A stretch of DNA of 63,645 nt, filler included, from Sphacelaria rigidula (Eukaryota): assembly GCA_964200075.2 (NCBI GenBank). It is 10 parts of 10 records of this genome, joined end to end, with 100 filler letters (N's around TTAATTAATTAA, not from the genome) between each part and the next. Parts side by side here need not be neighbours in the genome. Positions count along the whole stretch, not along the records: positions 12,751 to 19,025 come from CAXNAA020021070.1; 9 more parts are not named here. The stretch is one strand, 5' to 3'. Below, one piece after another: positions 883 through 43,133 of this stretch. Made by a program: the position numbers and the translations under genes. A model generated the notes under the pieces. The model worked only from the letters and a program-made list of their open reading frames with translations. It was not told where the DNA came from and did not search any database. Position 1 is the stretch's first letter. Each line of letters starts with the position of its first letter.

Positions 883-2780
883 AGTGTACCGTCGCCCATC
901 CAGTACCGATTCGGGCCAAAACAGTATCGATTCGGATGCTGCATAGTTCACACCCGCCCGACCCCGTCGCCCGTACAGTACTTCCAGCACAGTCCACGCC
1001 CATCTGCCTCGGCCCTTTGCCGCCGGTACAGTACACTTGGAAGCGCAGCGCAGTACGAGCGCCGCCGAGATGCGGCACCGCACAAGTCCCCATAGCTTTT
1101 AGCCGCCTGTAGAGTACAGAGTAGGACCGGCACAAGTACACGTCCACCCAGTCCTTCGACGCCTACACAACACAGGTGGTGGCGTTAGCACAGTACATGT
1201 GCGGATGACGCGACGTACACGCCCGTACAGCCCTTACCATATAGTACACGCCCACTCGGCTCGTCCCCCTCCGCCGATACAGTACACTCCGGAGCGTAGC
1301 ACAGTACCAGTGCCACAGAATCGCGGCAGTGCACAAGCCCGCCTGGCCTTCAGCCGCCTGTCGAGTACAACCCGAGACCGGCACAAACACACACCAGCCC
1401 GGTTCTTTGCCGCCCACACAGTACAGGTGGGGGTATAACAGTACACATGGGATGACGCGAAGCACAGCACACGCTCGCTTTTACCTACGCAGCAGCACAG
1501 AGCCCTATGTTATGCCAGAAACCCGGCAAGCTAAAGTACGCTGAACCCCGACTCAATACTTGACGGTCCCATCACATACATGCCGCCCGCTCAGACGTGT
1601 TTCGTACTAGCCCAGTCAGCCCCTTTGTCCCAAGTCCGTGTGACACAGCTCATGCACAGTACTCAGCATTCGTACACGCGGCTTGTGAGCACACCAGCCC
1701 ACCACTTCTGCCACGTGAAAGCGAGGCCGCTCCAGCCTGAGCGTCCGACAGCACAACAGAATTGAAGTCTGATTTGTTAAGATAGTACAGGGTTACGACA
1801 CCCCGTTTGCGGTAGCTTCCGCCACAGGACGCTCGGGAACGCGCCGACTCTGGCCTGCACATGTCCTGTTTCATAGGTTAATAGGCGAGACATATCTTGC
1901 GTAACGTTTCCAAGAGATGGAATAAACATGAAACGAATACTGTTTGCTGCTCTGTTGCCCCGATGACGAGCTCGACTCGGGTTATTTGTACCACGCGACA
2001 CATGATGGAGCCCGGCTCGGCGACAGGCCGAACCCACCGCTGCATTGCAGCATACCCGAGCGGGAGTTTTACCTTTCCCCGCAACAGGCGAACATTGCAC
2101 ACTCTCCTCTCAAAACACCACACCCTGCGCAGCTTTCTTATGTCCTCTGTATCCTACATGTGTAGTGGAAAGAATACTAAGCCGCGCTAACCCAGTCCAC
2201 TACAGTTGACCCCAAAGTGTCATGTTCACCCTCAAGATGATCTGAGTGCCGGATGATCTGGAAAACGTCATCATCCGACATAACGCAGCCCCAATGCCCC
2301 GCCTGCAACCCTTTGAACCTTGCTTTCACTCGTGGCTTGGACGCTGATGCGCAGTGGGATACGTGGAAGCGCTCGCTTTGAGAAATATATATATATATAT
2401 ATATGTTGGATCCAAAATATCTATACATACACGACACGTCCGCCCAACGATTTTGCATTTGATTGTATGATACAGTACAGTATACGCGTCTACAGGACCA
2501 ACCAGGCCTGATAGCTTTTCTGGCAGAAAGATCCAGACGTACGAACGCGGTGCATACATAGTTTTGTACGGACCAAACGGATATACAAGGAAATCGAGCT
2601 TTCGCCCATGGCGAGTGCATGATCCAGGATCCCTCTGCGGACCAGATCCAGGAAGGCTGGGAATCAGGAGAACCACCCCAAGCCCCACGACAAGCCCCCG
2701 TGTACAGCGAGAAAGTCTTTGTTTCAGGACATCTGAGCACGGCAGTCCCGTTCTAGAAAGACGTTATTCTGAAGTACCAC

Positions 2781-4739
2781 ATGCAACCCGACTTGTTATT
2801 GTCGTGGATTAACGGTGTAGACCTACACACATTCGTCGACAAATCAACGACAGGAAGTTTCCAAGGACGCCCCTTTCACGGCGCCGACCTGACGGGTGTG
2901 GAGTTACCCAACCACTTGAACCCAGAACACGAACTGTTTGTCGACTGCGAGATCAGAAAACTTGTCGATAAAGGCTGCGCGGTGCGAGGGGCGGAGATAG
3001 CAGACGTTCACGCGCAACCCAAGCCACGCATGTCTCTCCCGCTTGGAGTAGAATTGTCGAAACCACGCTTAATATGGAACGGCCGTTGGCTGAACCTCAT
3101 GTGCAAGGATATGCCGTTCAAGATGGACGGGGTAGGAAAGGTGGCCCAGTGCTCGTGGCAAGGTGCTTACCAAGTTACGATGGACCACAAATCAGGTTTC
3201 CACCATGTACCCCTCGACCCCACATCATGGGAATACTTCGGTTTTCAGTGGGAGGGCGAATATCACGTCTGGACTGTCCTCTGTTTTGGTTGGTGCAGCT
3301 CCCCCTACATCTACCACACACTGAGCGAGGCGGTGGCACAGTACCTGCGATCCCGACAAGTACCAGTACTGGCATGGGTCGACGACTTCTGGCTGACGGG
3401 AGTCCGCTCGACCAAGCATGACCTACCTAACACGCATAAACAGGCAGCAAGTTCAGCAGCCCTCCTGGCGCTGTCAGTCTTCTATCATTGTGGATACTTC
3501 ATGTCCATCTCCAAATTCCAGCTAGAACCCACCACCAAAGTTGTCTTCTTGGGGGTTCTGTGCGACACAGACGAATGCCGATTTGAAGTCCCCGAAGATG
3601 AGCTCGCCAAGTTAGAGCGCATCTTAGACGATGCCCTCGCTACCGGAACCATCACGTTCACCATGCTTGAGAAGCTGGCGGGCAAGTGCACGAGTATGTC
3701 GGTTGCAGTACCAGCAGCCAGTTCGTACACGTTCCACATGTACAAACAGATCGCGGTATATAGAAAGACAGGAGGAAAACATATCACAGCTACGGTAGCG
3801 CTCTCTGCCAATGGTGGTCTTCGAAACGAGATAGCCACATGGCGGGAACTCCGAAACAAAATGAATGGGGCGGCACGGTACAGCCCCATTCACCACATCA
3901 TCGCCATAAACGGCGCGACAGACGCATCCTCACTGGCATGGGGGGGTATTGTTCGAGGCCCCTCTGGCGTCACCTTTACAGCGGCCGCCGACTTTCCCGC
4001 CGAATGGGTGACAGCGCACATCAATGTCAAGGAAATGTTCGCTCTACACGAAGTCCTTAGACTGTTCTGCTTAGAACAAGCTGATCAAGTGGCGGGGACT
4101 AGTCCGTCAATAGATGTCGACGACAAAACCATGTACCATGCCTTCAGAAAAAATAAAGCGAGGGACGAACGCATGCACACACTCATCCAACAGCTCTTCT
4201 GGATGCAAGTCAGACAAGACTTCACACTCACATTACGATGGGTAGACTCAAAGAGTAACTCAGAAGCAGACCGTCTTTCAAGACCAGGAGCCAACGAGCA
4301 CGTGCGACTGAGAGCAGAATATTTTGACCAGTTATGGTTCGAGTGGGGCGGGTTCGACATGGACTTGATGGCATCCACAGCGTCAGCCCAGAAGATTCCA
4401 TTGAATGCACCGGGTGGAGGAACTGCTCTGCCTTTTTACTCGAGATACCATACAGCAGGATCACACGGAGTGAACGTTCTTAGCTATGACGCTAGTCGCT
4501 CGTCATGTCGCACGCAGCAATGCTTCGGATTTTGTTCCCCCCCCCCAGTGACGGTTGAAGTAGTGCTTCAGCACATCGCAGATTGCTACGCCCGTGCGGT
4601 GGTAGTGGTTCCAGCGCGACCAGCGTTGTGGTATCCTATGCTTACTGAAGCAGCCGTACGTACCAAACTCGTCTCTAGAAAAGGGGAAAATAGGCAGTTT
4701 TTCGTACCCACCATCAACGAGGACAGGAAGCGTTCGTAA
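2781..4739 (+). CDS. DIRS pol: reverse transcriptase-RNase H-adenine methyltransferase-like domain
   Basis: RT motifs DHKSGFHH, LCFGWCSSP, AWVDDF. RNase H motifs TDAS, HINVKE, SNSEADRLSR. MT-like FDMDLMAS...FYSRY...FCSPP...VVVVP. The frame continues upstream (VFVSGHLSTAVPF*KDV) through a TAG at 2754-2756. Confidence 0.92.
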   Translation: MQPDLLLSWINGVDLHTFVDKSTTGSFQGRPFHGADLTGVELPNHLNPEHELFVDCEIRKLVDKGCAVRGAEIADVHAQPKPRMSLPLGVELSKPRLIWNGRWLNLMCKDMPFKMDGVGKVAQCSWQGAYQVTMDHKSGFHHVPLDPTSWEYFGFQWEGEYHVWTVLCFGWCSSPYIYHTLSEAVAQYLRSRQVPVLAWVDDFWLTGVRSTKHDLPNTHKQAASSAALLALSVFYHCGYFMSISKFQLEPTTKVVFLGVLCDTDECRFEVPEDELAKLERILDDALATGTITFTMLEKLAGKCTSMSVAVPAASSYTFHMYKQIAVYRKTGGKHITATVALSANGGLRNEIATWRELRNKMNGAARYSPIHHIIAINGATDASSLAWGGIVRGPSGVTFTAAADFPAEWVTAHINVKEMFALHEVLRLFCLEQADQVAGTSPSIDVDDKTMYHAFRKNKARDERMHTLIQQLFWMQVRQDFTLTLRWVDSKSNSEADRLSRPGANEHVRLRAEYFDQLWFEWGGFDMDLMASTASAQKIPLNAPGGGTALPFYSRYHTAGSHGVNVLSYDASRSSCRTQQCFGFCSPPPVTVEVVLQHIADCYARAVVVVPARPALWYPMLTEAAVRTKLVSRKGENRQFFVPTINEDRKRS

Positions 4740-5036
4740 GTCATGAATGGGACATGCACGCAGTTGAAGTAGATTTTCAAGCCTGATGAATTAATGATAT
4801 TCGGCCCGACTCTTCATTGCAACAGTTTCACAAGAGATGCTCTATCCTCCAAGACGGGAAATACCACACGACGAGTACCTGAGAACCACCTGACGCATGC
4901 TCTTATCGCGCGACCATTTCAACATATCCAGGCGCTCCCAATGCTCCGTGCTTTGGTGCAATCGTTACTAGCACGGATAACAACGATGCTCGCCCACCTA
5001 TGCCACAAGCGCAACCCGCCCAGCCACAGCTCGAGT

Positions 5037-6200
5037 ATGACTCGAGTCTCCGCCTCGCGAGCGAGAGTGCTATGTCCCGACTGCCATGGAGAGAACGACG
5101 AAGATTTTCAATACTGTCAATGGTGCGGCATAAGGAATTCGTTATTAGCTATGAGGGTAACGTAAGGGGTGGCTTTGAAAATCGACGAGGAGGCTATACA
5201 GAAACGATACACTCAGTTTACGCTCGCCATGGCAGCGTCAGCCTCAGTAAAGGGACAGGATTCCACAACAGAACTATTCAATAGATTATTAGCCTCACGA
5301 CACGGGCAGGGCCCCAAATACTGGACAGCAGCGCAACCGACCGACATCGTAGCCTTTTTGTGCTGGCTGGATGCATGTGGGAAAGGACGTACGCCAGTAC
5401 ATGCCAGACATTGCGCTGCAGTAGGTACCCCCGGACTCATCGACTGTTCAACGAAATAAGGAGAATGTACTTACAGATACGCACACGATTCCTTATGGAC
5501 GAATTATACGTCGAAACTAGCGACAGCCTTCGAGAACGAGCTCGGAACGAACTCAAACTGGAGCGATGTACTACGGATAGGAAACCCAATCCGCAGCAAC
5601 CTCGTTGCACAATATATGATGTTCACCAAGGAAGAACAGAAGAAAGCAGGAGTGCTAGTAAAACAAGCACCTTTTTTACTACACAGCCACCTCCTTGAAC
5701 TGATAACCCCACTGCGGTCAGCTCTACAATGTTCTAGAGATGCTACAGAACAGGTACTCCTGGCCCGGGACATCGCCCTGTTCACAGTAGCATTTAGCAC
5801 CACTAAACGCGGAGACGAGCTCACGAGGACCCTATCCAACGCATTCTCCGACTCTCCAACCACAGTGGTTTCATGTTCAACTTTCAATGGGGGAAAACAC
5901 TACGAGGAAGTGCAGACCATCTACTCACTGTACCGTACGATGAGCTCTACCCCGCGACATGCCCTGTCCGAGCAGTGGAGCAATGGGTGAAGGTAGGAAG
6001 ATCAATGGGCTGGAATATGACCCAAGGCTATCTCTTGGAAAAGGCTGAGCACGGCGTGGAGATATATGAGATTGATGAAAGTTGTAGATCCAGGAACAGT
6101 AGGAAACCGAATGGCCGAAGGTGTCTCCGAAGCACAGTACAGAGAAATTAACGAATTCCCATTGCAGGAACAGAGTAAAACAACAAATTGTGCGAATTGA
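5037..6200 (+). pseudogene. Zn ribbon-ALOG-tyrosine recombinase, disrupted
   Basis: CPDC..ND...YCQWCG; ALOG core FLCWLD..GKGRTPVH..HC...C...C.YRYAHDSL...GNPIRS..V.QY...EQKKAGV; YR RDIALF...KRGDEL, WGKTLR, WKRLSTAWRY. In-frame TAA at 5163 and 5457, frameshift near 5835, HxxR segment deleted near 6035. Confidence 0.88.
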
Positions 6201-6275: not shown

Positions 6276-6375
6276 NNNNNNNNNNNNNNNNNNNNNNNNN
6301 NNNNNNNNNNNNNNNNNNNTTAATTAATTAANNNNNNNNNNNNNNNNNNNNNNNNNNNNNNNNNNNNNNNNNNNN
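6276..6375. other. Artificial contig spacer
   Basis: N44-TTAATTAATTAA-N44, stops in all six frames. Confidence 0.99.
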
Positions 6376-9075: not shown

Positions 9076-10484
9076 CCTTATGCCCTGTTCATCCTCTGAA
9101 CCAAAATATGATTCCTTCATTTTGTCATGAGTTAACCCTTAGACAGCGAGTGTCGCCTCGGAACAGTTTCACAGGGTTGACAGTCCGGAGACATCCGGGG
9201 GTTTCCGGGGGGCAGGAAGGTTGGTTTTTGTGGGGGACGGGGGGGGGAGTCTATCCGCAGAGCCGTAAAGCTCACGAAGTCAACCATGTACGTTTGTAAA
9301 TTTCCCGCGGAGGATTCTAAGCCAGGAACGAGGCCTGAGAGGCGCGGCACGGCATGACTATTCTGTCCAATCACGGCTGTCATAATGGCCACTTTGTTCC
9401 CCCACAGGTGGACTTCATGTGGACTACTTCGCGTAGTCTAGTCGTATTTTCCACTTTGGTCATAGCAAGTCAATCATTGATTACATGGGCACGGACAACG
9501 TGCGTTTTACTCCGCCCCTGATGTGTGCCGCCGCTCTGACTCCCCCATGTGTTGTCAGCATAGTGTTGTAGTGGAACATTAAGTAGAGACACCGGCAGCA
9601 TGCAGTGGGCTGCTGTGTTCAGTGGAGAGTGATGACACGCTTACTGTTTCGTGTCGTTGTATCCAGCGAAGACATGCAAGCACGCATGCTCACTCTGCAC
9701 GCTACAGACTGCAGGGCCAGACATGGTAAGGTTGGGTACTGGCGCGGCCAGCCAGGATCCGGTATACTGGATCCGATCAGTACACTGGTGGCGCGGCGAA
9801 GCCGCGTGGTCGAGGGGCAGCCGCGCCCACCGCGCGCCCCCCCCCGGCTGGTGATGCGGCCCCGCTGTAGGCGCCCCGCCACCGGCGCTTTTTTTACGCG
9901 ATTTAGCTTTACAACAGCATCAAAACTGAGTGGTTTTTGACCAAGCTAAGACGCGATATTGCGGCAGAAAACGTCTTGTAGAACGCCCAAATTAATTGTT
10001 TTCAACTTGAGGAAAATGTCGAAATATAAGATAATAAATGTGCCACAAATGTTGCGATGCTCATCAACTCCAGCTTCGTGGTGAGGGTTATATTACCCAT
10101 TATTTGTTGCAATTGGAGTGTAAGGTGTGTCTTGAGTCAAAACAAGTACAGAGTACTTCGGACTTCCGAGTAAGAAATGGAGAGGGCGGGTCTGTAGTAG
10201 CTTTTGACGGCACAAGGCGTGAGCATCCTTCATTATTGAACATAGGACAGCGTCACACAAGAAGCAAAACGAAAGACACAGCAGCCCTGGACGTGTATCA
10301 ACACCGCATCTGCTGACACAGGCGGCGGGGTCTGCTGCCGGCGGACTGTCATACGCAAAAAAAAAAATGCATCGTTCTGATGGTCTCCGGCTGTGTGCTT
10401 TGTGTGGTGTGTGTGGTGTGTGTTCTCTCCTTTGAGGCGGCGTGGCGGCGTAACTTGGAAGGGTTTCTGCTGGTTTTGGAGGCG

Positions 10485-11048
10485 TATTGTGGGACGTACC
10501 GTAGTGGGCGGTCCAACGATTCATTTTGTGTAATTTTGTGATTTTTTCGTTATTGACGATTTTCTTGAACTCTTTTCGCTTGCTACAGCCTACCACATCG
10601 GGGATCTGAAGATACTTGTATCCGCTCCACATTCCAAGAAAAAAATAGTCTGTGCTCAACTTTGAGTAACTTACGGGCTGACCGGTCATCGGGGGTCCTG
10701 CCACGTTTCAGCCCAGATTCTTACTCTTCTGTATTTTCGGTCGATCGAGCCCGTCCTGATCATATTTGTAAAGAAATGTACAGTTTTAATTTTATAATTC
10801 CTGCCTACTCATCGCACTAGGGCCGATAAACTGTGCTTCACGGTCGATAACACCCTCCTGACGAACGGGGTATTTACTCGTTTCGCCTGATGACAACAAC
10901 ATGCACTGAATTGGGCACTGTGTTTCGAGGATGATCTATTGTGTTGTACCAAAATCTACCGACGCACGCAATTTCGACTTCTATCGGAGGGCAGTACGCG
11001 AGGAAAACCCCGAAACACGCCTGAATAGTTAGACCGCCTACTACTGTA
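10485..11048. repeat. Dispersed repeat of about 570 bp
   Basis: Colinear with 51645-52256 (for example ATCCGCTCCACATTCCAAG, GAACGGGGTATTTACTCGTTTCG). Sub-blocks also occur at 6590-7130. Confidence 0.85.
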
Positions 11049-11198
11049 CGTGAGTTGCGTATGTACTGGCGGTACTGGCTGCCCGTTTGCCAGTTCTTGG
11101 GAACTGGCCAGTTCCTACGAACTGACAATAGGTACTGGTTCAGTACCCAACCCTCAAGAAAAGTCCATGTGTTCTCCGAGACTATTTTCCAGGGATAT

Positions 11199-11425
11199 AC
11201 ACGTTACACGTTACACGTTTACGTTACGTTCATCACGTAAAACAAATTGACGTTCACGTTACGTTACGCATGTCACGTTAAAAAAATTGAAGGTTACGTT
11301 AACGTCTCAGTTGAAAATTCAGCGTTACGTTTTGCTGCATGTAACGCAATATGAAACGGTTCATGTAACGTGTAACGTCCAGTATAACGTCACGTTGACA
11401 CGTGTAACGTTCGAATGTTACGTTT
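11199..11425. repeat. Cluster of (C)ACGTTA/TAACGT motifs in both orientations
   Basis: Many ACGTTA copies followed by GTAACG copies, resembling transposon subterminal repeats. Confidence 0.7.
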
Positions 11426-11642
11426 CATTAGAGAGTTTCGGAAAGAAAAAAGCAGCCGGAAAAACTCAGGGTCAGGTTTTGGAAGTTGGGATTTAATGCC
11501 AGGATATGACGAATTCCCCTATTTAAACCGCGAAAACTGAACTCTGAGAAGAGACGTGCGCAGTAACTCAGGATTATTTTTTTATTTTTCCATTAAACCC
11601 TGAGTTGCTACAAGCTGGGCCAGCCTAGAGGTCCGCAGACCC

Positions 11643-11898
11643 ATGCGCCGGCCAACATTTGGAGATGAAGCGTATAATTTGGTATGGACAATGCATAGGG
11701 CATAAAAAAAATTACCTCGGTACCAAAGTTTTTTTTTTTTCATGAGTCAAGGGCATTTTACTGATGAAACTGGTTATTGGCCTTAACTCATGGAAAAAAT
11801 GAAGATCCTGCTTGTACCGACGTAAGTGTTTTTTTTATGCCCTATACATTGTCCAAACCAAATCTTACGCTTCAACTCTAAATATTGGCCGGCGCATT
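11643..11898. mobile_element. Foldback/MITE-like inverted repeat
   Basis: ATGCGCCGGCCAACATTTGGAG...ATAGGGCATAAAAAAAA is inverted to TTTTTTTTATGCCCTAT...AAATATTGGCCGGCGCAT; arms about 110 bp. Confidence 0.75.
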
Positions 11899-12650
11899 CG
11901 CCTTTTGAAAATCGGGTCGGTAGAAATTTGGAATAGTATTTCGCAGGCCACTCACCGGCCCACGTTTGGTTTTTGTGTATTGAATTATTGTGTGGGCCCT
12001 CGCTAGGGTATAATTAACAAAACACAGTGGGTCAGTTTTTGTTACTATTTTTTTTACTGCTTTAGGGCGTTCTAGTATGGTAAAGACCATTTATTCACGA
12101 GAACGCCCTAACCTTTATGGAACAAAAAAGAAAGCAGGCCCAAATTGTTTTTCGGCACATCTTCGTGGCTCTCCATGTTAAGTGCCAAATCACAATTCTA
12201 CATATTGAGCTGATACATTGAGATAAGGCCTGAGAGCAATGTTCATTTCTCCTCAAAACTCCACGAAAAACACGCAAAAAAATGAAAAAAAATGGGGGAA
12301 AAAGCACGCAAAAAAAGTAAGAGGCTGTTTCGTTTTTGTTATCATGCACGAGCAGATCACCCTATGAAATTTCATAGAACAACTTCACACCCTGGACAAT
12401 ACAATATGTAATATATATTGCCCGCTCAATATATCGACGCGTCGGGTGGTCAATATATATTGGGCGAGCAATATGAACACTGCATTCGTGAGATTCAGAG
12501 GGTAGTTTCAGATTCAGAGTGAGACCCGAAACAATCGACTTTGCCGTCGATTTTGACATCGCCACAGTTCGAGGAGTAACGCGCCCAGCCGGTGAAGCGG
12601 TGGCTTCAATGAAAGCTGTCACTTACACGACCAATGTGACACATCACTTG

Positions 12651-12750
12651 NNNNNNNNNNNNNNNNNNNNNNNNNNNNNNNNNNNNNNNNNNNNTTAATT
12701 AATTAANNNNNNNNNNNNNNNNNNNNNNNNNNNNNNNNNNNNNNNNNNNN
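12651..12750. other. Artificial contig spacer
   Basis: N44-TTAATTAATTAA-N44. Confidence 0.99.
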
Positions 12751-12938
12751 ATGTTGGGCGAAAGGAGCGTGGATCGTATCGCATCATGTCTGCTACATCG
12801 TTTCTACAACTGTGTTTCGCATGCACGTGGACGGAACACAGTGTCGCAGGACATCAACGGGACCCGGACTGGCACTATCAGAGGGAGTTCGGCTATCGGC
12901 CCTGCTTCCGCACACTAGGACGCGTTCAAGAGGCTCAC

Positions 12939-13010
12939 CGCTGAGCTGGTTGACGTTGAGGTTAAGAAGCCGCAGGTTCTTCAGTTTTCCCAGCGACGAC
13001 GGTATCTCGC
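12939..13010 (-). CDS. LRR exon GEIPSSLGKLKNLRLLNLNVNQLS (LRR receptor, possibly ROCO-type)
   Basis: CAG acceptor, GTGAG donor, 72 nt, phase 1/1, 24-aa plant-type LRR consensus. Confidence 0.93.
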
Positions 13011-13202
13011 CTGCATGTTGGGCGAAAGGAGCGTGGATCAAATCGCATCATGTCTGCTATATCGTTTCTACAACTGTGTTTCGCCTGCACGTGGACGGAA
13101 CACAGTGTCGCAGGACATCAACGGGACCCGAACTGGCACTATCAGAGGGAGTTCGAATATCGGCCCTGCTTCCGCACACTAGGACACGTTTGAGAGACTC
13201 AC

Positions 13203-13274
13203 CGCTGAGCTGGTTTTGGTTGAGAGAAAGCTTCTGCAGGTTCTCCAGTTGTCCCAGCGACGACGGTATCTCGC
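13203..13274 (-). CDS. LRR exon GEIPSSLGQLENLQKLSLNQNQLS
   Basis: CAG/GTGAG, 72 nt, phase 1/1. Confidence 0.93.
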
Positions 13275-13467
13275 CTGCATGTTGGGCGAAAGGAGCGTGG
13301 ATCATATCGCATCATGTCTGCTATATCGTTTCTACAACTGTGTTCCGCCTGCACGTGGATGGAACACAGTGCTCGCAGGACATCAACGGGACCCGGACTG
13401 GCACTATCAGAGGGAGTTCGGGTATCGGCCCTGCTTCCGCACACTAAGACGCGTTTGAGAGACTCAC

Positions 13468-13539
13468 CGCTGAGCTGGTTGTCCATGAGGTTAAGAAGCC
13501 GCAGGTTCTTCAGTTGTCCAAGCCACGACGGTATCTCGC
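13468..13539 (-). CDS. LRR exon GEIPSWLGQLKNLRLLNLMDNQLS
   Basis: CAG/GTGAG, 72 nt, phase 1/1. Confidence 0.93.
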
Positions 13540-13731
13540 CTGCATGTTGGGCGAAAGGAGCGTGGATCAAATCGCATCATGTCTGCTATATCGTCCCTAC
13601 AGCTGGGTTTCGCCTGCACGTGGACGGAACACAGTGTCGCAGGACATCAACGGGACCCGAACTGGCACTATCAGAGGGAGTTCGAACATCGGCCCTGCTT
13701 CCGCACACTAGGACGCGTTTGAGAGACTCAC

Positions 13732-13803
13732 CGCTGAGCTGGTTACCGCCGAGGGAAAGACGCTGCAGGTTCTCCAGTTGTCCCAGCGACGACGGTATCT
13801 CGC
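13732..13803 (-). CDS. LRR exon GEIPSSLGQLENLQRLSLGGNQLS
   Basis: CAG/GTGAG, 72 nt, phase 1/1. Confidence 0.93.
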
Positions 13804-13961
13804 CTGCGTGTTGGGCGAAAGGAGTGTGGATCATATCGCATCATGTCTGCTACATCGTTTCTACAGCTGTGTTCCGCCTGCACGTGGACGGAACACAGTG
13901 TCGCAGGACATCAACGGGACCCGGACTGGCACTATCAGAGGGAGTTTGGCTATCGGCCCTG

Positions 13962-14222
13962 TAATAGATAGCCTCATGCACCGGGTGCGTTGTAATACCT
14001 GGGAAAAACGCTCATACAAAATGACATGTCATAATCCCAGATTTTCGGCACGCAAAAAGGCGTGTGCCGCCACAGCAGATATGCACTGCAACCACTACAT
14101 AGGGTATACCTTAAATAACAGAATGATATCTTATTCGTATTTCCCCTGCACGTCATGATCCAATCTCCATATCTATTTCCTTCGTATGCAGGCAGATCCT
14201 GGAGCGTAAGTATAATCGATTA
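13962..14222. mobile_element. MITE inserted in an LRR-array intron
   Basis: Absent from sister introns. Flanked by duplicated CCCTG (13957-13961 and 14223-14227; a 3-bp CCT reading is also possible). Ends are TAATAGAT and ATCGATTA. Confidence 0.85.
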
Positions 14223-14261
14223 CCCTGCTTCCGCACACTAAGACGCGTTTGAGAGACTCAC

Positions 14262-14333
14262 CGCTGAGCTGGTTGAATACGAGGAAAAGATGCTGCAGGT
14301 TCTCCAGTTGTCCCAGCGAAGACGGTATCTCGC
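14262..14333 (-). CDS. LRR exon GEIPSSLGQLENLQHLFLVFNQLS
   Basis: CAG/GTGAG, 72 nt, phase 1/1. Confidence 0.93.
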
Positions 14334-14400
14334 CTGCATGTTGGGCGAAAGGAGCGTGGATCATATCGCATCATGTCTGCTATATCGTTTCTACAACTGT

Positions 14401-15145
14401 GTCCGTTTTAGGTGCAGGGTGCGCATTAGGTGGTGTGCATCTGACGTAGCAAGCAGTATGTGACGCAGTAGAAGGCTTCCTCCAAGATGCGGCGACCGAC
14501 GGGCCGCCCGTCACTCGTGGCTTTGGATGATACTATTGTCCACATCACCTTGTCATACAGCCCTTTGTGGTCGGGGCGGGCCGCCTTTCCCCGTTTGTTG
14601 CGTGTGGAAAATTCTCTTCGAAGGGTATCAGCGCTGCGGTGCGCATACATACAACAGAATAGTCAATGTTTTTCAACCCTTTTGGGGACCGAACCTCCAG
14701 AACGGCCAATGAGGCCGGTGAGGAATGGCGTGTCTCGCGTCTCAGCGAAACACGGAAATGTTGCTGAAAACCGGCGGATGTAACTGCAGGGTTACGACGA
14801 AGACCGAAAGTTTTATCCAGTCTGTTTCCAGGTGCAGGGTGCGCATTAGGTGGTGTACATCTCAAGTAACAAGCTTCCAACAAGATACACGACCGGCGGG
14901 CCGCCCGCAACTCGTGGCTTTGGACGATACTTTTGTCCCCATCACCTCGTCATACAGCCCTTTGCGGTCGGGGCGGGCCGCCATTGCCCCCTTCGTTGCA
15001 TGCGGCAGTTTCTCTTCGAAGGGTACCAGCGCTGCGGTGCGCATGCATACAACAGAATAGTACAGTACCCTGTGGTACGCCTCTCCGACTGAAGCAGCAG
15101 CTGCCGCTGCATACTACCTTGCACGTTTTGGGTAATTCTCAGCTA
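14401..15145. repeat. Dispersed repeat, partially tandem (about 420-bp period)
   Basis: AGGTGCAGGGTGCGCATTAGGT at 14410, 14830 and 30396, with colinear downstream sequence. Confidence 0.85.
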
Positions 15146-18100
15146 CCGATACTAGCTGCCTTTGTACCGCTTTCTCATCCCCGCCCATTGGTCAACTTAC
15201 GACGTCAAGGCTACTCAGAAGACAGCATAAAGTCGTAAGCCCACTTTTGCTGAAGCCACATGGCACCGGAGCCTCCTCCATGTCTTTCAGTGCACCAAAC
15301 CGTCCAAAAATGCGCGTCCGTTGTATCGGTAGCGGTGGGTGACGAACGGCGGTTTGTTTTCATTCCCTCTTGGAACACGATATCCCAGGAGTTCGATGAA
15401 AATCGTGCATATTCATGAAATGAAAAGGCATACCCATGGAACAACAAATACACCTGCACAGGGCGAGTCATTCATCCGCTAGAATTGTAGAACGATGGAC
15501 ATGACAAGAAAGTCGACCAACATCCGCCCAGCCAACATGACACACCCGGCGAATGTACTCCACTTGTCCGTGCAAGGACCGTCCTCTTCGTAGTTGATCA
15601 GTACATTTCGTTCTGTCGCTTATTGAGCATACGATTTTGTAAAAATGAATGGTTCAGCGTTCCCGTTTCAGGCGTTGGGCTACAAATAATCATGGTTCAT
15701 ATTACTCCGTTTGAATGTGTACAAGAAGTGGATTTCAAGTAGCACTGACAGTCCCGTGGGCTCCTCGTATGAGCAGAACGTGTTTTCGTTGAAATCCGCG
15801 CCACAGGCGTCCTATCCACAGCCGTCCTTGCCCGAGAGTTCTCGGTGTGCGTTGGGTTGGATCAACCCAACTAGCCTCCTGGCATTCCAGCGTATCGTGA
15901 GCATGGACGAAAAGCTACGCAGTGGCATCCAGCACATGTGGAACAACAACGGAAGTAACGGTAGGATTCTGTATATGAATTTTGGATCCATGTCGTTCTC
16001 TTCCGGTGACGTTGGGCATATTTTACCCGACGAGCCTGAATAAGCCCCAGAAGTCGATATGTTCGTTTTTTTTTTCGTGATTTTGGTCGTTGACACTTTT
16101 TTTGCCCAGTTTGGGGGTCAGGCGCACCCATAACTGTGTTCAAGTTTCAATACTTGCGGTGGGAAATGTTTTGTACCACTGAGACCATAGTACGGTTTTA
16201 CTGTTGTCTGTAGTACAAGTGTGCACATGTCTACTTGTGTTCGTTTGCATACTTCCATACTTGGAGACACTACAGTTGTTCTCGATGAAGGTCCACCATA
16301 TGCAGTAATCCTAGCTGCGGAAAGGCGAGAGGGGGAACGGAGGAACACCTGTCGACCGGGCCCGATACGACGTGCAAGGCCTGAAGTGCGCCACCCATGC
16401 AGCCGCTACGGCGATCTCGAACGAATGGCCACCCAACGGTGGTGTGACTGCGCGAGCTAACGCAAGCTTCACGTTAGGTTGCCAGTTCAAGTCCTCTTGG
16501 CAGCTGCTTGAGCGGCCGACTCACGCACTATCGCATCATCATGAGCCAGATCAACTGGTGTCTCGGCTTCCCCGTTCTCTTTTGAGTGTTGCTTGTAGTT
16601 ATGGGTCACCCTTGTGAACGAGCTGCCGTCACCAATGTCGTCACAGGTGTTCACGACATCCGCCACCGCCTCATTCATGATATTTGTTCTGTAACCTTGG
16701 TCGTTATAGGGCAGGGTGTCTAGTTCCGTTTCGTAGTCCCGAGTTTGACACCAGCGCTTTCGGATGTGTAGCACCTCCGGTTTTTTTTTCCAAGGAGGAA
16801 ATTAATCATGAGTTGCTGAGAATGTCTCTTCTCAGGGGTCAGTTTTCAGGGTTCATCCAAGGGGAATTCGTCACATCCTGGCCTTATTCCGAACTTTCTC
16901 GACAGTCCCCGAGTTTTTCCTCATCACCGAGATCTGATTTGTGTTTCCGAAACCCTCTTTTGTGATGCGGGGAGGACCGCGTGCACTCGAGACCGTTTCG
17001 GAATCATCACACACTAAGATCAAAATTTCCCAAGATCATCGGGGACAGTCCCCTCAGGACTCTGCCCCTGACTCTATCGCGCACCCCAACCCTCGACGGT
17101 GTTGAAACTTGGACGCGGTCTGAACAGCACACGGTCCTTCGGCCAACAGCACACGGCCAAGTCCTCCCGAGAGTAGTCATGGCAAAACAGATGAAACCGT
17201 CAATCACTTGGTGCCAGCTTTTCCCGTAGACTCCATCATCGCGACTTCATCAACCGCCTCCCAAACGAGTTTGATTGAAACAGTGACTGGTTTGTTCAAT
17301 ATATGTTCGTACCTACCAGCAACCTGTAATGCGCGGGGAACGTTACTCCCCGCTCTTTGATGGAAATCCGGGATTGGACGGATCGCGCACGCACCAAGCC
17401 ATATTTTTGGGTGAGCCTCGAATTCTCCCGTCGATATTCTGCCGGAGATTCCGTGGTGTCGGGCGGTTCATGTTCCCTCGCCCCCTCGCCCCCCTCTCTA
17501 CCCGCCCCTTTGTTGGCGGAATTCACTGGCCCCATGCAGACTGGACATCACAAGATGTGTACAACGTATTTCTTTGGAATGATCTTCAAACACATCACAC
17601 CCGTTCTGTACAGACAGGCACCACCACGCAAGCCCGATGACAAGCTATATCAAACTTTCCGGTACACCAGGGTACACGCTGAAATCGGAACACCGGCTTT
17701 ATCGGAAAGTTGTTCGATGGTACGGCTACAGACAAGTTGTACGACGTATTTGCGGCAGCGTCGCATCAGGCCCGCGAAGTGTAAGGTGGCCCCACCTAGG
17801 TGGCCCTGGATATCGCCCCGGGAGGGCCGCGGAAGTAGAATTTCGGGGATACAAGCAAATATTTCATTGGGAAATTACGTGACAGATAAGAGCACACGGT
17901 GAAATTGATGTCCATTTCACAGACCGCGCAGCTCGCCTGCGAGTAGTAGCTGTCGAAGGGTGGAAATGGGCGCTGGCGTCAAGAACAACCGTTACCTGGG
18001 TATTTGAATACATTCACCGTCAATATTTTGCCGGCGCAAACGCTCGACTACATCGTGTTCTGGATGGTGGAGGGGAAAATGATGTCCATCCAGTCGTCGA

Positions 18101-19025
18101 GACTCTGGGCGATTGTGGGCACTGCTCCGCCACGATAGCAATTATCTTCCTGTATGAAAAAGTCTTGGGAGCAACCCAAATTCCGGAATCACCACATGCT
18201 ATGTTGCTTAAAAAACAGCCGTGTTGAACAATACAACAGTAATATCAAAAGCTTTCAGCGGGGTTTATGCCCCTACATCATTTACCTTAGACTGCTACGA
18301 AGAGCGTTCGCAAGGCGCTGCGGCTTCCTCACCAACGCAGCAGAGTGAAGGGAGTACAAGGAGTATTACTGCTCTACGCTTCATCGCATGGCCCAAATCG
18401 AACGCAAAACTCAACACGACTTCAGTGCGGAAAAAAGAAGGGGGCCGGGGGGCAATATGCAAGGCGATTTCGTCGGAAAATGAAAAGAGAGGGCACTCGA
18501 ACACTAAAGTTCTTCTCACGAATTCGCCGGCTGCGTGCTGTGCGCTCAATAAGCGGAACCAGCAAGACTGAGGCTGTAGCGGAGAAAAATTGAAGAATTA
18601 GGGAACCCTCGGATGTTCCCGGGTTCTCAACTGACAGTACGCTGGAGTTAGACCCCGCGTTCTTTTCTTAGAGCGAGGAGACAGGGTACTGTTTCACTAT
18701 TCCTGTGAACTCACCTGTTGTGTGTCGTTCGGCGTGCTCGGCTACCCGGTCTTTTTCTCGCTGAAGAGAGGCAGTGCTCTGGCAGGTTATGCGTCCAGAC
18801 ACAGAGGACCTGGCGATAGACGATGAAACTTGATGTGTGTGTGTAGGTTGAAGCGCAGGTGTAAATATTACAACAGACGGTGACGGCGACCCAAGATGTT
18901 TTGAGCGTTGCGTGGGGTGAAAAAGGTAGTGGTGAACACAGGGCCGGTCAATTGAACACGGAACATTCAACATTCCTGCAATTTCCAATGACAATTATCG
19001 TAGAGTATACGATATCAAACGGGCG

Positions 19026-19125
19026 NNNNNNNNNNNNNNNNNNNNNNNNNNNNNNNNNNNNNNNNNNNNTTAATTAATTAANNNNNNNNNNNNNNNNNNN
19101 NNNNNNNNNNNNNNNNNNNNNNNNN
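19026..19125. other. Artificial contig spacer
   Basis: N44-TTAATTAATTAA-N44. Confidence 0.99.
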
Positions 19126-25400: not shown

Positions 25401-25500
25401 NNNNNNNNNNNNNNNNNNNNNNNNNNNNNNNNNNNNNNNNNNNNTTAATTAATTAANNNNNNNNNNNNNNNNNNNNNNNNNNNNNNNNNNNNNNNNNNNN
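25401..25500. other. Artificial contig spacer
   Basis: N44-TTAATTAATTAA-N44. Confidence 0.99.
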
Positions 25501-27038: not shown

Positions 27039-28268
27039 TCATGGTACGTTAAAGAAACCAAATTCCGCCGGGTCGAGGCTTGCTACAAAAGTATTGGTAT
27101 CCGCGTAATCCTCTTCGGCGACCTCCTGTGTCTTACCCCTGTGTCGCTCCGGTCGCGTTGTTTGCCCAATATACCGACTCGCAACCCGGCTCGACTTCCA
27201 TCCAATCTGCGCCATGACTGTCGCCACATCCTGGCCCGCTATGGTGCGCGCTACCGCCGCCCCCACCCGGAATGAATGCATCGTAAAATTTCTATCCCCC
27301 AAACCCGCTCGCTGGGCATGCTCCTGCAGTCGCGCCGTCATCGCCCGCGGTGTCATCGCGGTATCACACTTTGCCAACTTAATATCACCTGTCCTCCGTA
27401 TCTCGGGGAAAAGGAAACCTTGGCTTACCTGCCAGCCGCATGACTTCATGGCCTGCGCATATACTTGTAGCGCCGCTACTGCACACGTGTCAGGCATATC
27501 CCTGTCTGGGGCTACGTGGCATACATGCCGCGAACCCTCCCTCAGCGTTTTGGTGAAACGGAAGTTTAAGACGATACCCTGATCCTCGGGCAGCCGTAAA
27601 ACACTTCCTGCCATCATTTGCGTCAAATCTCCTCCTCTACCCGCCGTACGCAAAGCCACCGTGAACAACGCCATATCCCTGACTAAAGCAATGGACTCCG
27701 CGGGGTTTTCAGTTCCTGCTAACTGTATTCTGATAGCTGCGACAATCGCGGCTAGGTCCGGCAGTAGCAGCGGCCTGGCTTGCTTTGTCGCCACACCCGC
27801 CTTCTGCTGCTCTGCGGCCGAGAATGCTAAGTATTCCGTCACTGGCACACTCTTGACCGGATTACCTCGGTGTTCTGTGACGGACCAGTCGTCGCTGTTA
27901 GCGAGGATCTCCGTATACGCACAGCGCAGTTTCGATATGTACTGTTTATTTAGCGAAGTATGTGCATACCGCTTCGCGCACCCGAGACCTAGCTCTTTGC
28001 ATTGTACCAAGCTGTCTGTGCCTATCTGTGGGCATTGCAGAACGTGCACTACCTTTGTACCCGTGCCCTGCGAGTCCTTGTATGCCAGGTAATTTACGAC
28101 TTGCTCTGGCGTGGCATTTTCCCATCCTACGGCGCCGCCCGAACGCTGTCGCATGAAACGGTCGAAATCATCTGCTACGACACTCTTACGCCTATGCCCC
28201 ACTTTAGCCGCTCTTGCTGCGGCAAACGCCGCCAGCCTGTCATTAAGCAAACTGTCGTTGATATGCAA
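27039..28268 (-). CDS. ALOG domain-tyrosine recombinase, uninterrupted
   Basis: ALOG: YLAYKDSQGTGTKVVH..QC...C...CAKRYAHTSL...ISKLR.AY...GNPVKS..V.EYL...EQQKAGV. YR catalytic set: R (AGRGGDL), K (FTKT), HSFR, W (IGWKS), Y (SRYI). Confidence 0.93.
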   Translation of the reverse strand: MHINDSLLNDRLAAFAAARAAKVGHRRKSVVADDFDRFMRQRSGGAVGWENATPEQVVNYLAYKDSQGTGTKVVHVLQCPQIGTDSLVQCKELGLGCAKRYAHTSLNKQYISKLRCAYTEILANSDDWSVTEHRGNPVKSVPVTEYLAFSAAEQQKAGVATKQARPLLLPDLAAIVAAIRIQLAGTENPAESIALVRDMALFTVALRTAGRGGDLTQMMAGSVLRLPEDQGIVLNFRFTKTLREGSRHVCHVAPDRDMPDTCAVAALQVYAQAMKSCGWQVSQGFLFPEIRRTGDIKLAKCDTAMTPRAMTARLQEHAQRAGLGDRNFTMHSFRVGAAVARTIAGQDVATVMAQIGWKSSRVASRYIGQTTRPERHRGKTQEVAEEDYADTNTFVASLDPAEFGFFNVP

Positions 28269-28304
28269 TTGGGCCTCCCCTTGCGGTCGCGGTGCCGGCC
28301 GCGT

Positions 28305-28514
28305 TTATTTGGCGGGCACACCGCAGCTCTGACAAAACCTGTAATTTCCATCATTATGCCCTAGGCATGCTCCGCACAGCACTCTAGGCACCCGATCTGC
28401 AATTCTGGTAGCGCCTTGGGGCACCCTTAGCGAGGCTGTTCCTGCCGTTATTCCTCCTCCGCTTTCTCCTATCGGCGCAAATGTCGCCACCCAGGTATCT
28501 GTGCCCTCCATCAC
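28305..28514 (-). CDS. Zn-ribbon peptide in frame with the downstream ALOG-YR
   Basis: CGAC..HND.NYRFCQSCG, homologous to 5072-5128. One TAA (28305-28307) separates it from the YR ORF. Confidence 0.7.
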   Translation of the reverse strand: MMEGTDTWVATFAPIGESGGGITAGTASLRVPQGATRIADRVPRVLCGACLGHNDGNYRFCQSCGVPAK

Positions 28515-28627
28515 CTAGCACAGCAGCACGGAGGACCATGAAGTGACAAAGGCATAACGGGCTGACTATGCCAGTCCAAAATTAAGCTCCACTGCTACCA
28601 TGTCCCATTTCTCAAATACAAACGGCC

Positions 28628-29899
28628 TTACACTCTTTGCATGGTGCTCCGAGAAGAAAGCATGCCGTCTCCTGCCTTTGCCACCAATTTCTCCTTGATA
28701 CGCGCACTCCTTAGCCTAGGATACCAAGCCCCTTTTGTCGCTGGTACCACGACCACTGCTCTTGCCCTGCATTCCTCCATTCGTTGCAACACCACCCCCA
28801 CCATACACACGGGCGGGAAAGAGAAATTAAAACCCTTCTCGCTCAAGCCCGGAATTAATGCAACATCTTGCGCTAGCACATCGATTGCCGCCGCTCCCGG
28901 ACATGCGTATCGCGCGCAAAACGGCAATCCACTGCCCTCTCTTGGTTGCCCTCGTGGCACCCGCTGCACTGAGACGTTTGTGGCCATGAGGTCTGCGTCA
29001 AATGCCCCGAAGAACATCCACAAATCCGCGAAAATCTCATGCCGTAACCTCACAAACTCCACCCTACCTGGTCGGGTAATAGCATCTGCTTCGCTATTTT
29101 GCGCGGATGGTACCCATTGCAACCTTAACCAAAAACCCTCTCTCCTCTGCAGGTTATATAGATCAAGCAACAGTGCATGTGTATTGGGGTTTCTCGATCT
29201 ACCTCGTGCAAACGCATCCACCACTGACGTATTGTCAACATCCACTAAAACCTGCGCTCCTCTAAGTCGCCCCGGCGCTCTCCTGCAAAATTCCCGCAAG
29301 ACCTTATTTAGTGCGAATGCCTCCTTGGCGTTGATGTGCTGCTGTATCCATACTGAGGAAAATTCTGCACCGGCTTGGAAAAGCTGACCGTCCACCCGCA
29401 TCACACCCCCCCATGCTGCTGACGAAGCATCTGTTGCGCCTCTCGTGACGGCCAGCGCATAGTGCTTGGCGGAATACCACGGACCCTGCTGCGAATGCTG
29501 CGTAACGCCTAACCATAGCTCTAACTCATCCCAGAGGCCGCTACCTTCCTGCGCTGGGATCTCCGTCAACCATTTCCCTTTAACTTTTTTTTCGAGCGCT
29601 TGTACACCCTTGAAAATAAAGTGCGTCCACGGAGACGCCGGCCGCACCGCTACCTTCATACTCATGCACTTTCCCGCGATCTTTTGCAGCGTAGTCGCAT
29701 CGACTGCCCTATTTTCCATCACCCTCCTAATCAAGGTGCCAAGTTTGTCCAGCTTGTCCTTCGGAACACGGTACGCCGCTCGTTCACTGTCACATAAAAT
29801 ACCTAAGTATCGCTGCACTCTCCGCGGGACAAGATCGCACTTTTTGATGCTCAAGTAAAACCCTGCCAAGAAGGAAACAGACACCGCCAGAGCTATCAC
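28628..29899 (-). CDS. DIRS pol, C-terminal part (end of RT, RNase H, MT-like)
   Basis: RYLGILCD, ATDASS, HINAKE, DVDN, QNSEADAITR, FDADLMAT, FSFPP, AVVVVP. Confidence 0.9.
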   Translation of the reverse strand: MIALAVSVSFLAGFYLSIKKCDLVPRRVQRYLGILCDSERAAYRVPKDKLDKLGTLIRRVMENRAVDATTLQKIAGKCMSMKVAVRPASPWTHFIFKGVQALEKKVKGKWLTEIPAQEGSGLWDELELWLGVTQHSQQGPWYSAKHYALAVTRGATDASSAAWGGVMRVDGQLFQAGAEFSSVWIQQHINAKEAFALNKVLREFCRRAPGRLRGAQVLVDVDNTSVVDAFARGRSRNPNTHALLLDLYNLQRREGFWLRLQWVPSAQNSEADAITRPGRVEFVRLRHEIFADLWMFFGAFDADLMATNVSVQRVPRGQPREGSGLPFCARYACPGAAAIDVLAQDVALIPGLSEKGFNFSFPPVCMVGVVLQRMEECRARAVVVVPATKGAWYPRLRSARIKEKLVAKAGDGMLSSRSTMQRV

Positions 29900-30234
29900 T
29901 GCTAGAGATTTTTGAACGAAGAGTGGAGATGCAATTGGTAACTCGAAGAGTTACGCGCTGAAATTTTGACACGACATTTTGATTATCAACCCGCGCAACT
30001 CTATTATGGGGTGCAGAGGAAGAAAGAAACAAAAAAACAGGGAGTTAGAGCGAGTTGAAATTTCAGCAAAAACAGGAAAAATGCGGTAACTATAACTTCC
30101 TTAAAGATCGATAAAGACGACGACAACGCTCCAACACATACGGACACTCGCGCCAACAACATTCTGGTAAAGTTTCGGCCAAAAATACCTCAAATTAGGC
30201 GCGGCATCGCAATTTTCGTGTGACACGGCTGCGG

Positions 30235-30725
30235 CCCTTGAACCCTTTTGGGACCGGGCCTCCAGAACGACCAGTGAGGCTGATTGGGAATGTCGTGTCT
30301 GGCGTCTGCACGAAACAGTGCTTCATGTTGCTGAAATCCGCGCATGTCACCGCAGGGTTATGAGGAAGACCGAAAGTTTCGTGCAATTTATTCTCAGGTG
30401 CAGGGTGCGCATTAGGTAGTGTGCATCTGATGTAGTAAGCAGTATGGGTCGCCGTTGAGAGCTTTCAACAGGATGCGGCGACTGGTGGGCCGCCCGCTAC
30501 TTGTGGCTTTGGATGATATTATTGTCCCCATCACCTTGCCACATAGCCCTTTGTGGTCGGGGTGGGCCGCGATTTTCCTCTTTGTTGTATGCGCCGAATT
30601 CTGTTCGAAGGGTATGAGCGTTGCGGCGCGCATACGTACAGTACAGTATAGTGCAGTACGCCTCTCCGACTGCAGCAACAGCTGCCGCTGCATACTCCCT
30701 TGCACGTTTTGGGCAGTTCTCAGTT
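30235..30725. repeat. Dispersed repeat, same family as 14401-15145
   Basis: Colinear similarity. Confidence 0.85.
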
Positions 30726-31261
30726 ACTCCGATCAACTGCCTATATACCGCTTCTTCATCCCCGCCCACTACATACATGTTGACTGCACACTGCAAGGCA
30801 TCGGCAGAGGGATAGGCAGAATTCATGACGATAGCTCCTTTTGTCTTTCCACGGCCCACGTGGGTCTATTGCCTCGTGAAAATGACTACATGGTAGCATG
30901 TACACTCCTCCCCCGTTTTTCCCACTCCACCCTGTGTTAGTGTAGTTGCTGCGTTTTATTATTGGCTGGTGACCCCAAAAAACTCCCGGGAACTCCTGGG
31001 AACGATAAGCTGTGCTCCGAGCATCCTGGCTTTGGAAACCTGCGAAGGCTTATCTGGGCCAGGAATAGGGCTCCCACACGATCTTTGCAGTGACATCACA
31101 CTCGGCAACAGTCCCCGCGCTGGTCGTTCGGGTCTGGTCGATAAATTTCGCCTCGACGTGATTGGGCAGGTCGCTCCCTGATTCATTTCTTACTATTTCA
31201 CGAAGACATGATCAACCCCGTGTTAGTGGGGGATCGGTCCCAAATGGGTTAATTCAAATGA

Positions 31262-31775: not shown

Positions 31776-31875
31776 NNNNNNNNNNNNNNNNNNNNNNNNN
31801 NNNNNNNNNNNNNNNNNNNTTAATTAATTAANNNNNNNNNNNNNNNNNNNNNNNNNNNNNNNNNNNNNNNNNNNN
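31776..31875. other. Artificial contig spacer
   Basis: N44-TTAATTAATTAA-N44. Confidence 0.99.
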
Positions 31876-33768: not shown

Positions 33769-33923
33769 GCGGTTAACTCATTGAAGGATATCTTCCCGGA
33801 GCTGGTGGATGCCTCGAAGCGGGTGATGGACGTTCTTCAAGACGAAGAAATGACCTTCAACCGAACTCTCGACAAGGGATTGAAGGAGTTCAACAAGATC
33901 GCGGGGGGGCTCGGAGAGGTCAA
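33769..33923 (+). CDS. AARS: Alanyl-tRNA synthetase, internal exon
   Basis: AVNSLKDIFPEL...VLQDEEMTFNRTLDKGLKEF. CAG acceptor; the AA|GTGCGT donor gives phase 2, matching the next exon. Confidence 0.9.

Positions 33924-43094: not shown

Positions 43095-43133
<39 letters not shown>

Follow-up and report, generated by a model that had tools for sequence, protein, structure and literature searches.

A tandem array of one-repeat leucine-rich repeat exons with near-constant introns and a variable exposed strand in Sphacelaria rigidula

We analyzed a 63,645-nt window of DNA from Sphacelaria rigidula (assembly GCA_964200075.2), which consists of ten pieces of 6274-6275 nt joined end to end, with a focus on an array of leucine-rich repeat (LRR) exons on the minus strand of the third piece (12751-19025). 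The array comprises five exons of 72 nt, and the differences between its units fall mainly in the short stretch that encodes the exposed β-strand of the repeat. Judging from the sequence, the array is probably the visible part, at least five repeats long, of a brown-algal gene of the “type I” LRR exon class, with tandem-duplicated modules and a varied binding face; we assign this reading a probability of roughly 0.6.

Under this reading, each module would consist of one 72-nt exon and an intron of ~192 nt, 264 nt in all, and would encode one 24-residue LRR of the plant-specific type. The modules would have arisen by recent tandem duplication, partly as two-unit (528-nt) blocks, and would probably have stayed similar through unequal crossing-over or gene conversion. 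Five solvent-exposed β-strand positions (14, 15, 17, 19, and 20), at which variation is observed directly, may have been kept or driven apart by selection. The predicted outcome is a solenoid whose scaffold is constant and whose concave binding face is varied, and its diversification would most simply be germline and evolutionary rather than somatic.

Structure of the array

The exons were located by script from their splice borders and translation. Given in reading order on the minus strand, they lie at 14333-14262 (u5, GEIPSSLGQLENLQHLFLVFNQLS), 13803-13732 (u4, GEIPSSLGQLENLQRLSLGGNQLS), 13539-13468 (u3, GEIPSWLGQLKNLRLLNLMDNQLS), 13274-13203 (u2, GEIPSSLGQLENLQKLSLNQNQLS), and 13010-12939 (u1, GEIPSSLGKLKNLRLLNLNVNQLS). 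All five are preceded by CAG and followed by GTGAG, begin with the letters GC, and end with G, and each encodes a single 24-residue LRR. The junction codon is always a split glycine codon (G|GC), which places every intron in phase 1. Since the same junction recurs in every exon, the exons can be joined in any order with the glycine codon restored each time, and the symmetry of type I exons permits insertion or deletion with no shift of frame. The description of five symmetric, phase 1-1, one-LRR exons in the first-pass annotation was therefore borne out in all five cases. The encoded peptides follow the pattern GEIPSSLG(Q/K)L(E/K)NL-xxLxLxx-NQLS, and residues G1, P4, L7, L13, L16, L18, N21, and L23 are invariant among the five. 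A 41-nt exon pattern, searched with at most three mismatches, had four matches in the array and none in 100 shuffled sequences.

Alignment of the units delimits introns of 192 nt (13011-13202, GTGAGT...CAG), 193 nt (13275-13467), and 192 nt (13540-13731), and a longer one of 458 nt (13804-14261), which consists of a unit intron and a 261-nt insertion. Only 188 nt of the intron after u1 (12751-12938) are present, as the piece ends there; they can be aligned with the other unit introns to within 4 nt of the acceptor, and the gene runs on downstream, out of view. On the other side of the array, the last ~72 nt of a unit intron with an intact acceptor precede u5 (14334-14405), as evident from the 96.9% identity between 14338-14402 and 12751-12815. 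Tandem Repeats Finder reported a period of 264 nt, with 4.6 copies and 91% matches, at 12751-13961. The earlier claim that the exons sit in 264-bp units stands for four of them, which are spaced by 264, 265, and 264 nt; it fails for the fifth, which lies 530 nt away because the 261-nt insertion displaces u5. The intron tested (13540-13731) gave no signal of RNA structure (fold z-score +0.68), and the array matched no Rfam family at E values up to 1. Across the whole piece, the only Rfam match was a snoRNA-like one of chance level (16631-16701, E=0.99).

The lower-coordinate end of the array is artificial. The pieces of the window are joined by nine 100-nt linkers, each of which consists of 44 N, TTAATTAATTAA, and 44 N (6276-6375, 12651-12750, 19026-19125, 25401-25500, 31776-31875, 38150-38249, 44524-44623, 50898-50997, and 57272-57371), and which recur every 6374-6375 nt. 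Because the window is a series of joined pieces, features that touch the ends of a piece are cut artificially. This applies to the array, which begins at the first base of its piece: the linker at 12651-12750, which is not biology, cuts it within an intron at 12750/12751, and the cut is not an informative contig end. The assertion that the rest of the gene is missing from this contig is thus not supported, as the array is interrupted in mid-intron by a linker and not by a contig end.

A repetitive stretch of this kind could in principle be a non-coding minisatellite or encode a repeat protein on the plus strand. Two plus-strand frames are in fact open over ~2.8 units (246 codons), a property that follows from the unit length, as 264 is a multiple of 3. 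The plus-strand open reading frame (ORF) had only a sub-threshold Pfam match, to Laminin_G_3 (21.9 bits vs. a cut-off of 27.6). The minus strand, on the other hand, gives a 72-nt LRR between GT/AG borders in five of five units, with the variation placed on exposed LRR positions, and the LRR frame meets a stop within every intron, as expected of true introns, so that the introns cannot be read through. We therefore rejected the plus-strand and satellite readings, which we regard as extremely improbable.

Variation is concentrated in the exposed strand

To locate the differences among the five units, we compared the exon and intron columns of their alignment. In codons 14-20, 13 of 21 columns are variable; the remainder of the exon has 5 such columns among 51, and the introns have 23 among 188 (Fisher’s exact test, p=1.2e-6 for the patch vs. 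the introns and p=1.2e-5 for the patch vs. the rest of the exon). The mean pairwise difference is 0.395 in codons 14-20, 0.043 in the rest of the exon, and 0.059 in the introns, and the best 21-nt sliding window corresponds to exon nt 38-60. These values agree with the near-constant introns and scaffold that had been noted before, and we recovered exactly the five strands in which the variation had been said to be concentrated (RLLNLNV, QKLSLNQ, RLLNLMD, QRLSLGG, and QHLFLVF).

The five varying positions, 14, 15, 17, 19, and 20, are solvent-exposed residues of the β-strand. By the Nei-Gojobori method, the mean nonsynonymous divergence (pN) in these codons is 0.60, whereas the introns differ by 0.059 and the scaffold has a synonymous divergence (pS) of 0.054 and a pN of 0.033. 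For each of the ten unit pairs, the pN of the variable codons exceeds the pair’s own intron divergence by a factor of 5 to 19. The youngest pair, u4 and u2, differs at 6 of 188 intron positions and none of 51 scaffold positions, and by nine differences within codons 15-20 (of the 21 nt of codons 14-20). The latter include two whole-codon replacements and stand against six differences in 239 flanking nucleotides (binomial P ~9e-10).

The binding patch exceeds the adjacent introns ~10-fold in divergence, which suggests homogenized flanks and a patch that is protected or actively diversified. On the sequence evidence, the flanks may have been homogenized as tandem repeats, leaving between them a patch of greater age, or one that was protected or replaced; point mutation and selection since the last duplication fit less well. 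Because 9 of 21 nt differ between u4 and u2 in the patch vs. 6 of 239 around it, one could also propose that a dedicated process diversifies the ~20-nt patch: either micro-conversion templated by other LRR exons, or cassettes put to somatic or regulated use, as suggested in PMC3341825. A dedicated or somatic process of this kind would be important if true, and we consider it improbable.

The exons match the type I class of brown algae

The peptides fit the 24-residue GxIPxxL-type repeat of plant-specific LRRs, whose full consensus is LxxLxxLxLxxNxLsGxIPxxLgx. The GxIPxxL motif is also named for this LRR class in the literature covered, of which two studies of brown-algal LRR genes (Zambounis 2012, PMC3341825; Teng 2024, PMC11378527) are cited here and below for the covered parts of their text. 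A single exon peptide had weak matches to Pfam LRR_1 and LRR_4, which are sub-threshold because the peptide is only one repeat. The 23-residue peptide of u4 also matches solved LRR proteins repeat by repeat, including Leptospira LRR proteins and the plant ectodomains GSO1, FLS2, ERL1, and PEPR1. The LRR-domain call is based on such single-exon evidence, rather than on the joined five-exon protein.

The type I LRR exon was defined in Ectocarpus as a 72-nt exon with the register GxxPxxLxxxxxLxxLxLxxNxLx, as distinct from the offset type II (PMC3341825), and the exons of the array have this length and register. Codon models of the Ectocarpus type I exons indicated positive selection at positions 15, 17, and 19 and, more weakly, at position 20, all on the concave face (PMC3341825). 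The variable positions of the array, 14, 15, 17, 19, and 20, coincide with these selected positions. The background given in the first-pass annotation, namely that brown-algal LRR-ROCO genes encode one LRR per exon and undergo exon shuffling and diversifying selection, matches what the two studies report (PMC3341825, PMC11378527). A brown-algal host is itself supported by the named homologues of a transposon in the window: a 660-residue reverse-transcriptase ORF (2757-4739) had 51 hits, most of them unnamed, and the named ones came only from Ectocarpus sp. CCAP 1310/34, Undaria pinnatifida (Undpi1), and Sphacelaria rigidula.

Searching for relatives of the module, we used an ORF that spans one exon and its intron. 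The protein search returned 20 hits among 93 candidates, mostly generic bacterial and plant LRR proteins, with one true relative, and a search restricted to proteins of similar length returned no candidate. The relative, P0004, is a 164-residue ORF called across an exon and an intron on a public contig of 2,979 nt, and it is the only close relative of the module that was found. It is 63% identical to the module over 72 residues, translated intron included. Compared with u4, P0004 keeps 18 of 19 scaffold residues vs. 25 of 48 residues of the translated intron (p=0.0007), and its exon differs from u4 at positions 11, 15, 17, and 20. This contrast indicates constraint, at greater divergence, on the scaffold but not on the intron. 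P0004 has a second module ~86 codons downstream, a unit length similar to that of the array. Intron motifs, such as one that translates to GPVDV, recur in both P0004 modules and in all five modules of the array. Exact-pattern searches of the JGI metagenomes, both for the exon end with the intron start and for the intron core, gave no matches, and the exon peptide words did not occur in the supplements of PMC3341825 (files 1 and 3 excepted) and PMC11378527.

Duplication history and assembly of the array

The units fall into two types that alternate along the array. Type A (u1 and u3) carries K11, R14, L15, and N17, and type B (u2, u4, and u5) carries E11, Q14, and S or F17; several intron sites show a matching alternation. 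Identity is higher at an offset of 528 nt (94.2%) than at 264 nt (91.1%) and, together with the A/B alternation, this indicates that at least one step duplicated a two-unit block. Unit u5 looks like a recombinant, to judge from informative intron sites: its exon is of type B, and the intron after it is of the kind that in the other units follows an A exon.

We further compared the piece with sequencing data. Of nine rows of sequencing runs, from three studies, none contains half of the sampled words. The comparison covers four runs (X1, X3, X5, and X7), all consisting of short assembled contigs at 95-99% identity. None of the runs is recorded as RNA; the assignment of X5 to RNA is a guess, and an exon lies together with an intron in one X5 contig. 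In all depth figures given here and below, the summed depth of contigs does not equal copy number. The unique flank of the array is covered at ~0-4% difference per contig, and the longest X3 contig has 9 differences in 769 nt (~1.2%).

These data bear on the concern that the array is an assembly artefact, that is, a collapsed or chimeric merge of paralogous LRR units from elsewhere. Tandem units of 264 nt at 91-94% identity are hard to assemble, none of the contigs from the four runs spans the array, and three differences are listed within it (13029, 13041, and 13086), each present in most or all contigs that cover the site. Against this, the units can be placed by the 6-15 intron differences that separate each pair, and their alternation is regular. 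Relative to the unique flank, the array has a summed depth of ~1-11-fold in X1 and ~0.4-5-fold in X3, like that of a handful of copies and consistent with roughly five local ones, which argues weakly against a grossly collapsed array. We thus judge an artefact to be very unlikely. The contigs of X7, labeled “algae metagenome”, do not cover the unique flank (16951-19025). Over 12751-13800, their summed depth is 10,000-16,000 on the LRR modules vs. 19,000-85,000 on the neighboring transposons. The depth of the modules relative to the transposons is far higher in X7 than in X1, a hint of a related alga with many more module copies.

The regularity of the exons also raises the possibility that many receptor variants are produced from this one locus, by regulated skipping or alternative splicing, or by somatic recombination. 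Mechanically, such combinatorial use is possible, as all exons are 72 nt long and phase 1-1, share the same junction codon, and have near-identical donors and acceptors. In Ectocarpus, ROCO genes are reported to have up to nine splice variants with different sets of LRR exons (PMC11378527), and somatic recombination has been proposed (PMC3341825). However, somatic recombination in brown algae has never been shown and was put forward as a hypothesis in the 2012 paper (PMC3341825), the A/B alternation and the duplication of a dimer represent an ordinary germline history of tandem repeats, and the DNA contigs are too short to reveal array length or order. Overall, combinatorial use of this array seems to us quite unlikely.

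Evidence bearing on the integrity of the gene

Several observations weigh against the array being part of an intact type I gene. First, variation in the scaffold and in the introns is alike (Fisher’s exact test, p=0.81, five units), so the five units alone do not show purifying selection. Second, the apparent synonymous divergence within the variable codons is high (0.40 over ~3 sites, a value inflated by multi-hit paths); an old patch with homogenized flanks, or replacement of the patch, would fit this better than simple selection on point mutations. Third, unit homology stops at 14405, 72 nt upstream of u5, and gives way to ~2.5 kb of dispersed repeats, and the other 4.6 kb of the piece yielded neither an additional LRR exon nor a start exon or any other domain. 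Fourth, Pfam searches revealed no Roc, COR, or kinase match among the 42 ORFs of the piece (50 aa or longer) or among 147 ORFs elsewhere in the window (95 aa or longer), with the downstream side cut at 12751 and short exons liable to escape an ORF scan. Fifth, no exon-exon joints were found in the short DNA contigs of the four runs.

The repeats within and beside the array reach high depth in the sequencing runs. The insertion in the intron between u5 and u4 (13962-14222) is a dispersed repeat of 261 nt, flanked on both sides by a 5-nt duplication (CCCTG). Its summed depth in X1 is 86573, compared with ~290-610 on the unique flank, and contigs of several runs break off at its ends (13962 and 14224-14226). 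No convincing terminal inverted repeats were found in it. The 5' side of the array is bounded by dispersed repeats at 14406-16950, as evident from internal duplication, a copy elsewhere, and depth. A repeat family in this stretch (14406-15187) contains a ~400-nt internal tandem duplication (14410-14663 vs. 14830-15061, 82-91%) and has a copy at 30238-30768, in another piece, at 78-83% identity. Summed depth in X1 lies mostly between 50000 and 206000 at 14431-16110, falls to ~1500-22000 at 16111-16950, and is a few hundred at 16951-19025. The unique sequence beyond these repeats had no Pfam match in any of the 42 ORFs of the piece.

Together, these features raise the alternative of an orphan or decaying array, that is, a pseudogene fragment or an LRR-only reservoir locus left by duplication and transposon insertion and not translated within a receptor. 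The high-copy repeats at the point where unit homology ends, the dispersed element within one intron, the lack of another coding signal among the 42 ORFs of the piece, and a scaffold no more conserved than the introns all favor it. The genomic context of known loci does so as well: in Ectocarpus, at least half of the ROCO loci are disrupted, with 20 pseudogenes beside 37 genes (PMC3341825), and in Saccharina there are LRR-only loci with shuffling 72-bp exons, a possible reservoir (PMC11378527). However, the reading frame is open in each of the five exons, the GT/AG borders are intact, every LRR consensus residue is present, and a six-frame motif scan of the whole window retrieved only these five minus-strand exons and no noncoding-strand or inactivated LRR exons. 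Moreover, nearly all changes at the binding positions alter the amino acid, as in working type I exons (PMC3341825), and transposons in long introns are compatible with a live gene. We consider an orphan array a serious but somewhat unlikely alternative to a type I gene that continues beyond the cut.

Such a gene could carry one of several partner domains. The Ectocarpus loci with type I exons comprise 37 ROCO genes, 20 ROCO pseudogenes, 5 LRR-kinases, and 46 of 164 other LRR loci (PMC3341825), and ROCO orthogroups expanded during the diversification of brown algae, according to the covered part of the Phaeoexplorer preprint. Taken as a prior from these Ectocarpus locus counts, and not as a result of our analysis, the array would have close to an even chance of belonging to a ROCO GTPase (LRR-ROC-COR) or its pseudogene, a slightly smaller chance of being an LRR-only locus, and a slim one of belonging to an LRR-kinase. 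Because the side on which ROC-COR is expected was removed at 12751, the partner would lie beyond the cut. The detectability of the domain is also relevant, as hmmsearch found COR in only 18 of 111 bona fide brown-algal ROCOs (PMC11378527).

Comparison with known LRR systems

Brown algae became multicellular as a lineage of their own, and genes with one LRR per exon are the leading candidates for their immune receptors. The array shares with the type I loci of Ectocarpus the 72-nt one-LRR exons, the register, the repetitive exon-intron structure, the hypervariability of the concave face, and a brown-algal host (PMC3341825). It differs from them in the unusual regularity of its modules, whose introns are 192-193 nt long, differ by only 0.059, and lie on one strand. 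Inverted or inactivated intronic LRR exons, which our six-frame scan did not detect in the window, are a published hallmark of shuffling in Ectocarpus, reported for 19 ROCO and 13 other loci and not for all type I loci (PMC3341825). The ROCO genes of Saccharina, Undaria, Cladosiphon, and Ectocarpus likewise have 72-bp LRR exons in one phase; the “phase 2” of Teng 2024, with nt 3-71 coding, describes the same split codon as phase 1 of the array (PMC11378527). That study also reports diversifying selection, LRR-only loci, and alternative splicing of tandem LRR exons. Unlike brown-algal ROCO genes, the array locus has no visible ROC-COR, with its downstream side cut off.

The plant LRR receptors FLS2, GSO1, and ERL1 resemble the array in the 24-residue GxIPxxLGxL...LxLxxNxLsG register and in their repeat-wise matches. 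The LRRs of plant resistance genes are hypervariable at the solvent-exposed xxLxLxx residues, and in most plant LRR ectodomains the repeats share large exons instead of having one exon each. Unlike plant LRR receptors, the piece that holds the array gave no evidence of a signal peptide, a transmembrane segment, or a kinase.

A looser, functional analogy can be drawn with the variable lymphocyte receptor (VLR) cassettes of lampreys and hagfish and with the Dscam exon arrays of insects, which also consist of frame-keeping modular repeats. In VLRs, somatic assembly brings flanking cassettes into a germline gene that is incomplete, and in Dscam the exons are spliced in a mutually exclusive manner with the help of docking and selector RNA elements. 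Neither mechanism has support in the array, and the intron that was folded shows no special structure.

Symmetric 72-nt LRR exons, diversifying selection on the concave face, shuffling, alternative splicing, and the idea of a cassette-like repertoire have all been published for brown algae (PMC3341825, PMC11378527). With its architecture, selected positions, splicing, and cassette hypothesis already known, the array does not extend the published concept on present evidence. What is slightly unusual is the regularity of the modules and the lack of inverted or inactivated intronic exons. The idea that brown-algal LRR genes may diversify in a manner like that of vertebrate antigen receptors dates from 2012. 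Here, the near-identical introns provide a built-in neutral yardstick beside the variable patch, and comparing populations or tissues against it could separate selection, gene conversion, and somatic change. In the covered parts of PMC3341825 and PMC11378527, we found no use of near-constant introns as a yardstick for a saturated 20-nt patch, and we do not claim that it is absent from print.

Other features of the window

Outside the third piece, retroelement ORFs lie at 2757-5987 on the plus strand and at 27042-29950 on the minus strand, and include the 660-aa ORF with the reverse transcriptase described above. Another ORF among them, of 421 aa, had matches to tyrosine recombinase (Phage_integrase) and to the ALOG domain, just under or at the Pfam cut-offs. 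These ORFs look like those of a DIRS-type element. A Ty1/copia-type retrotransposon occupies 57728-62554 on the plus strand; it is split over several frames and has gag, zinc-knuckle, gag-pre-integrase, SH3-like, and RVT_2 (165 bits) matches.

Two C-rich runs were also present, one of 89 nt with 71% matches that ends at a piece boundary (57183-57271) and a perfect one of 35 nt (43097-43131). Finally, two short plus-strand exons of an alanyl-tRNA synthetase were recognized at 33733-33906 and ~36079-36171, corresponding to positions 317-374 and 379-409 of the tRNA-synt_2c profile. They are separated by an intron of ~2.2 kb and illustrate the short-exon, long-intron genes of this genome.

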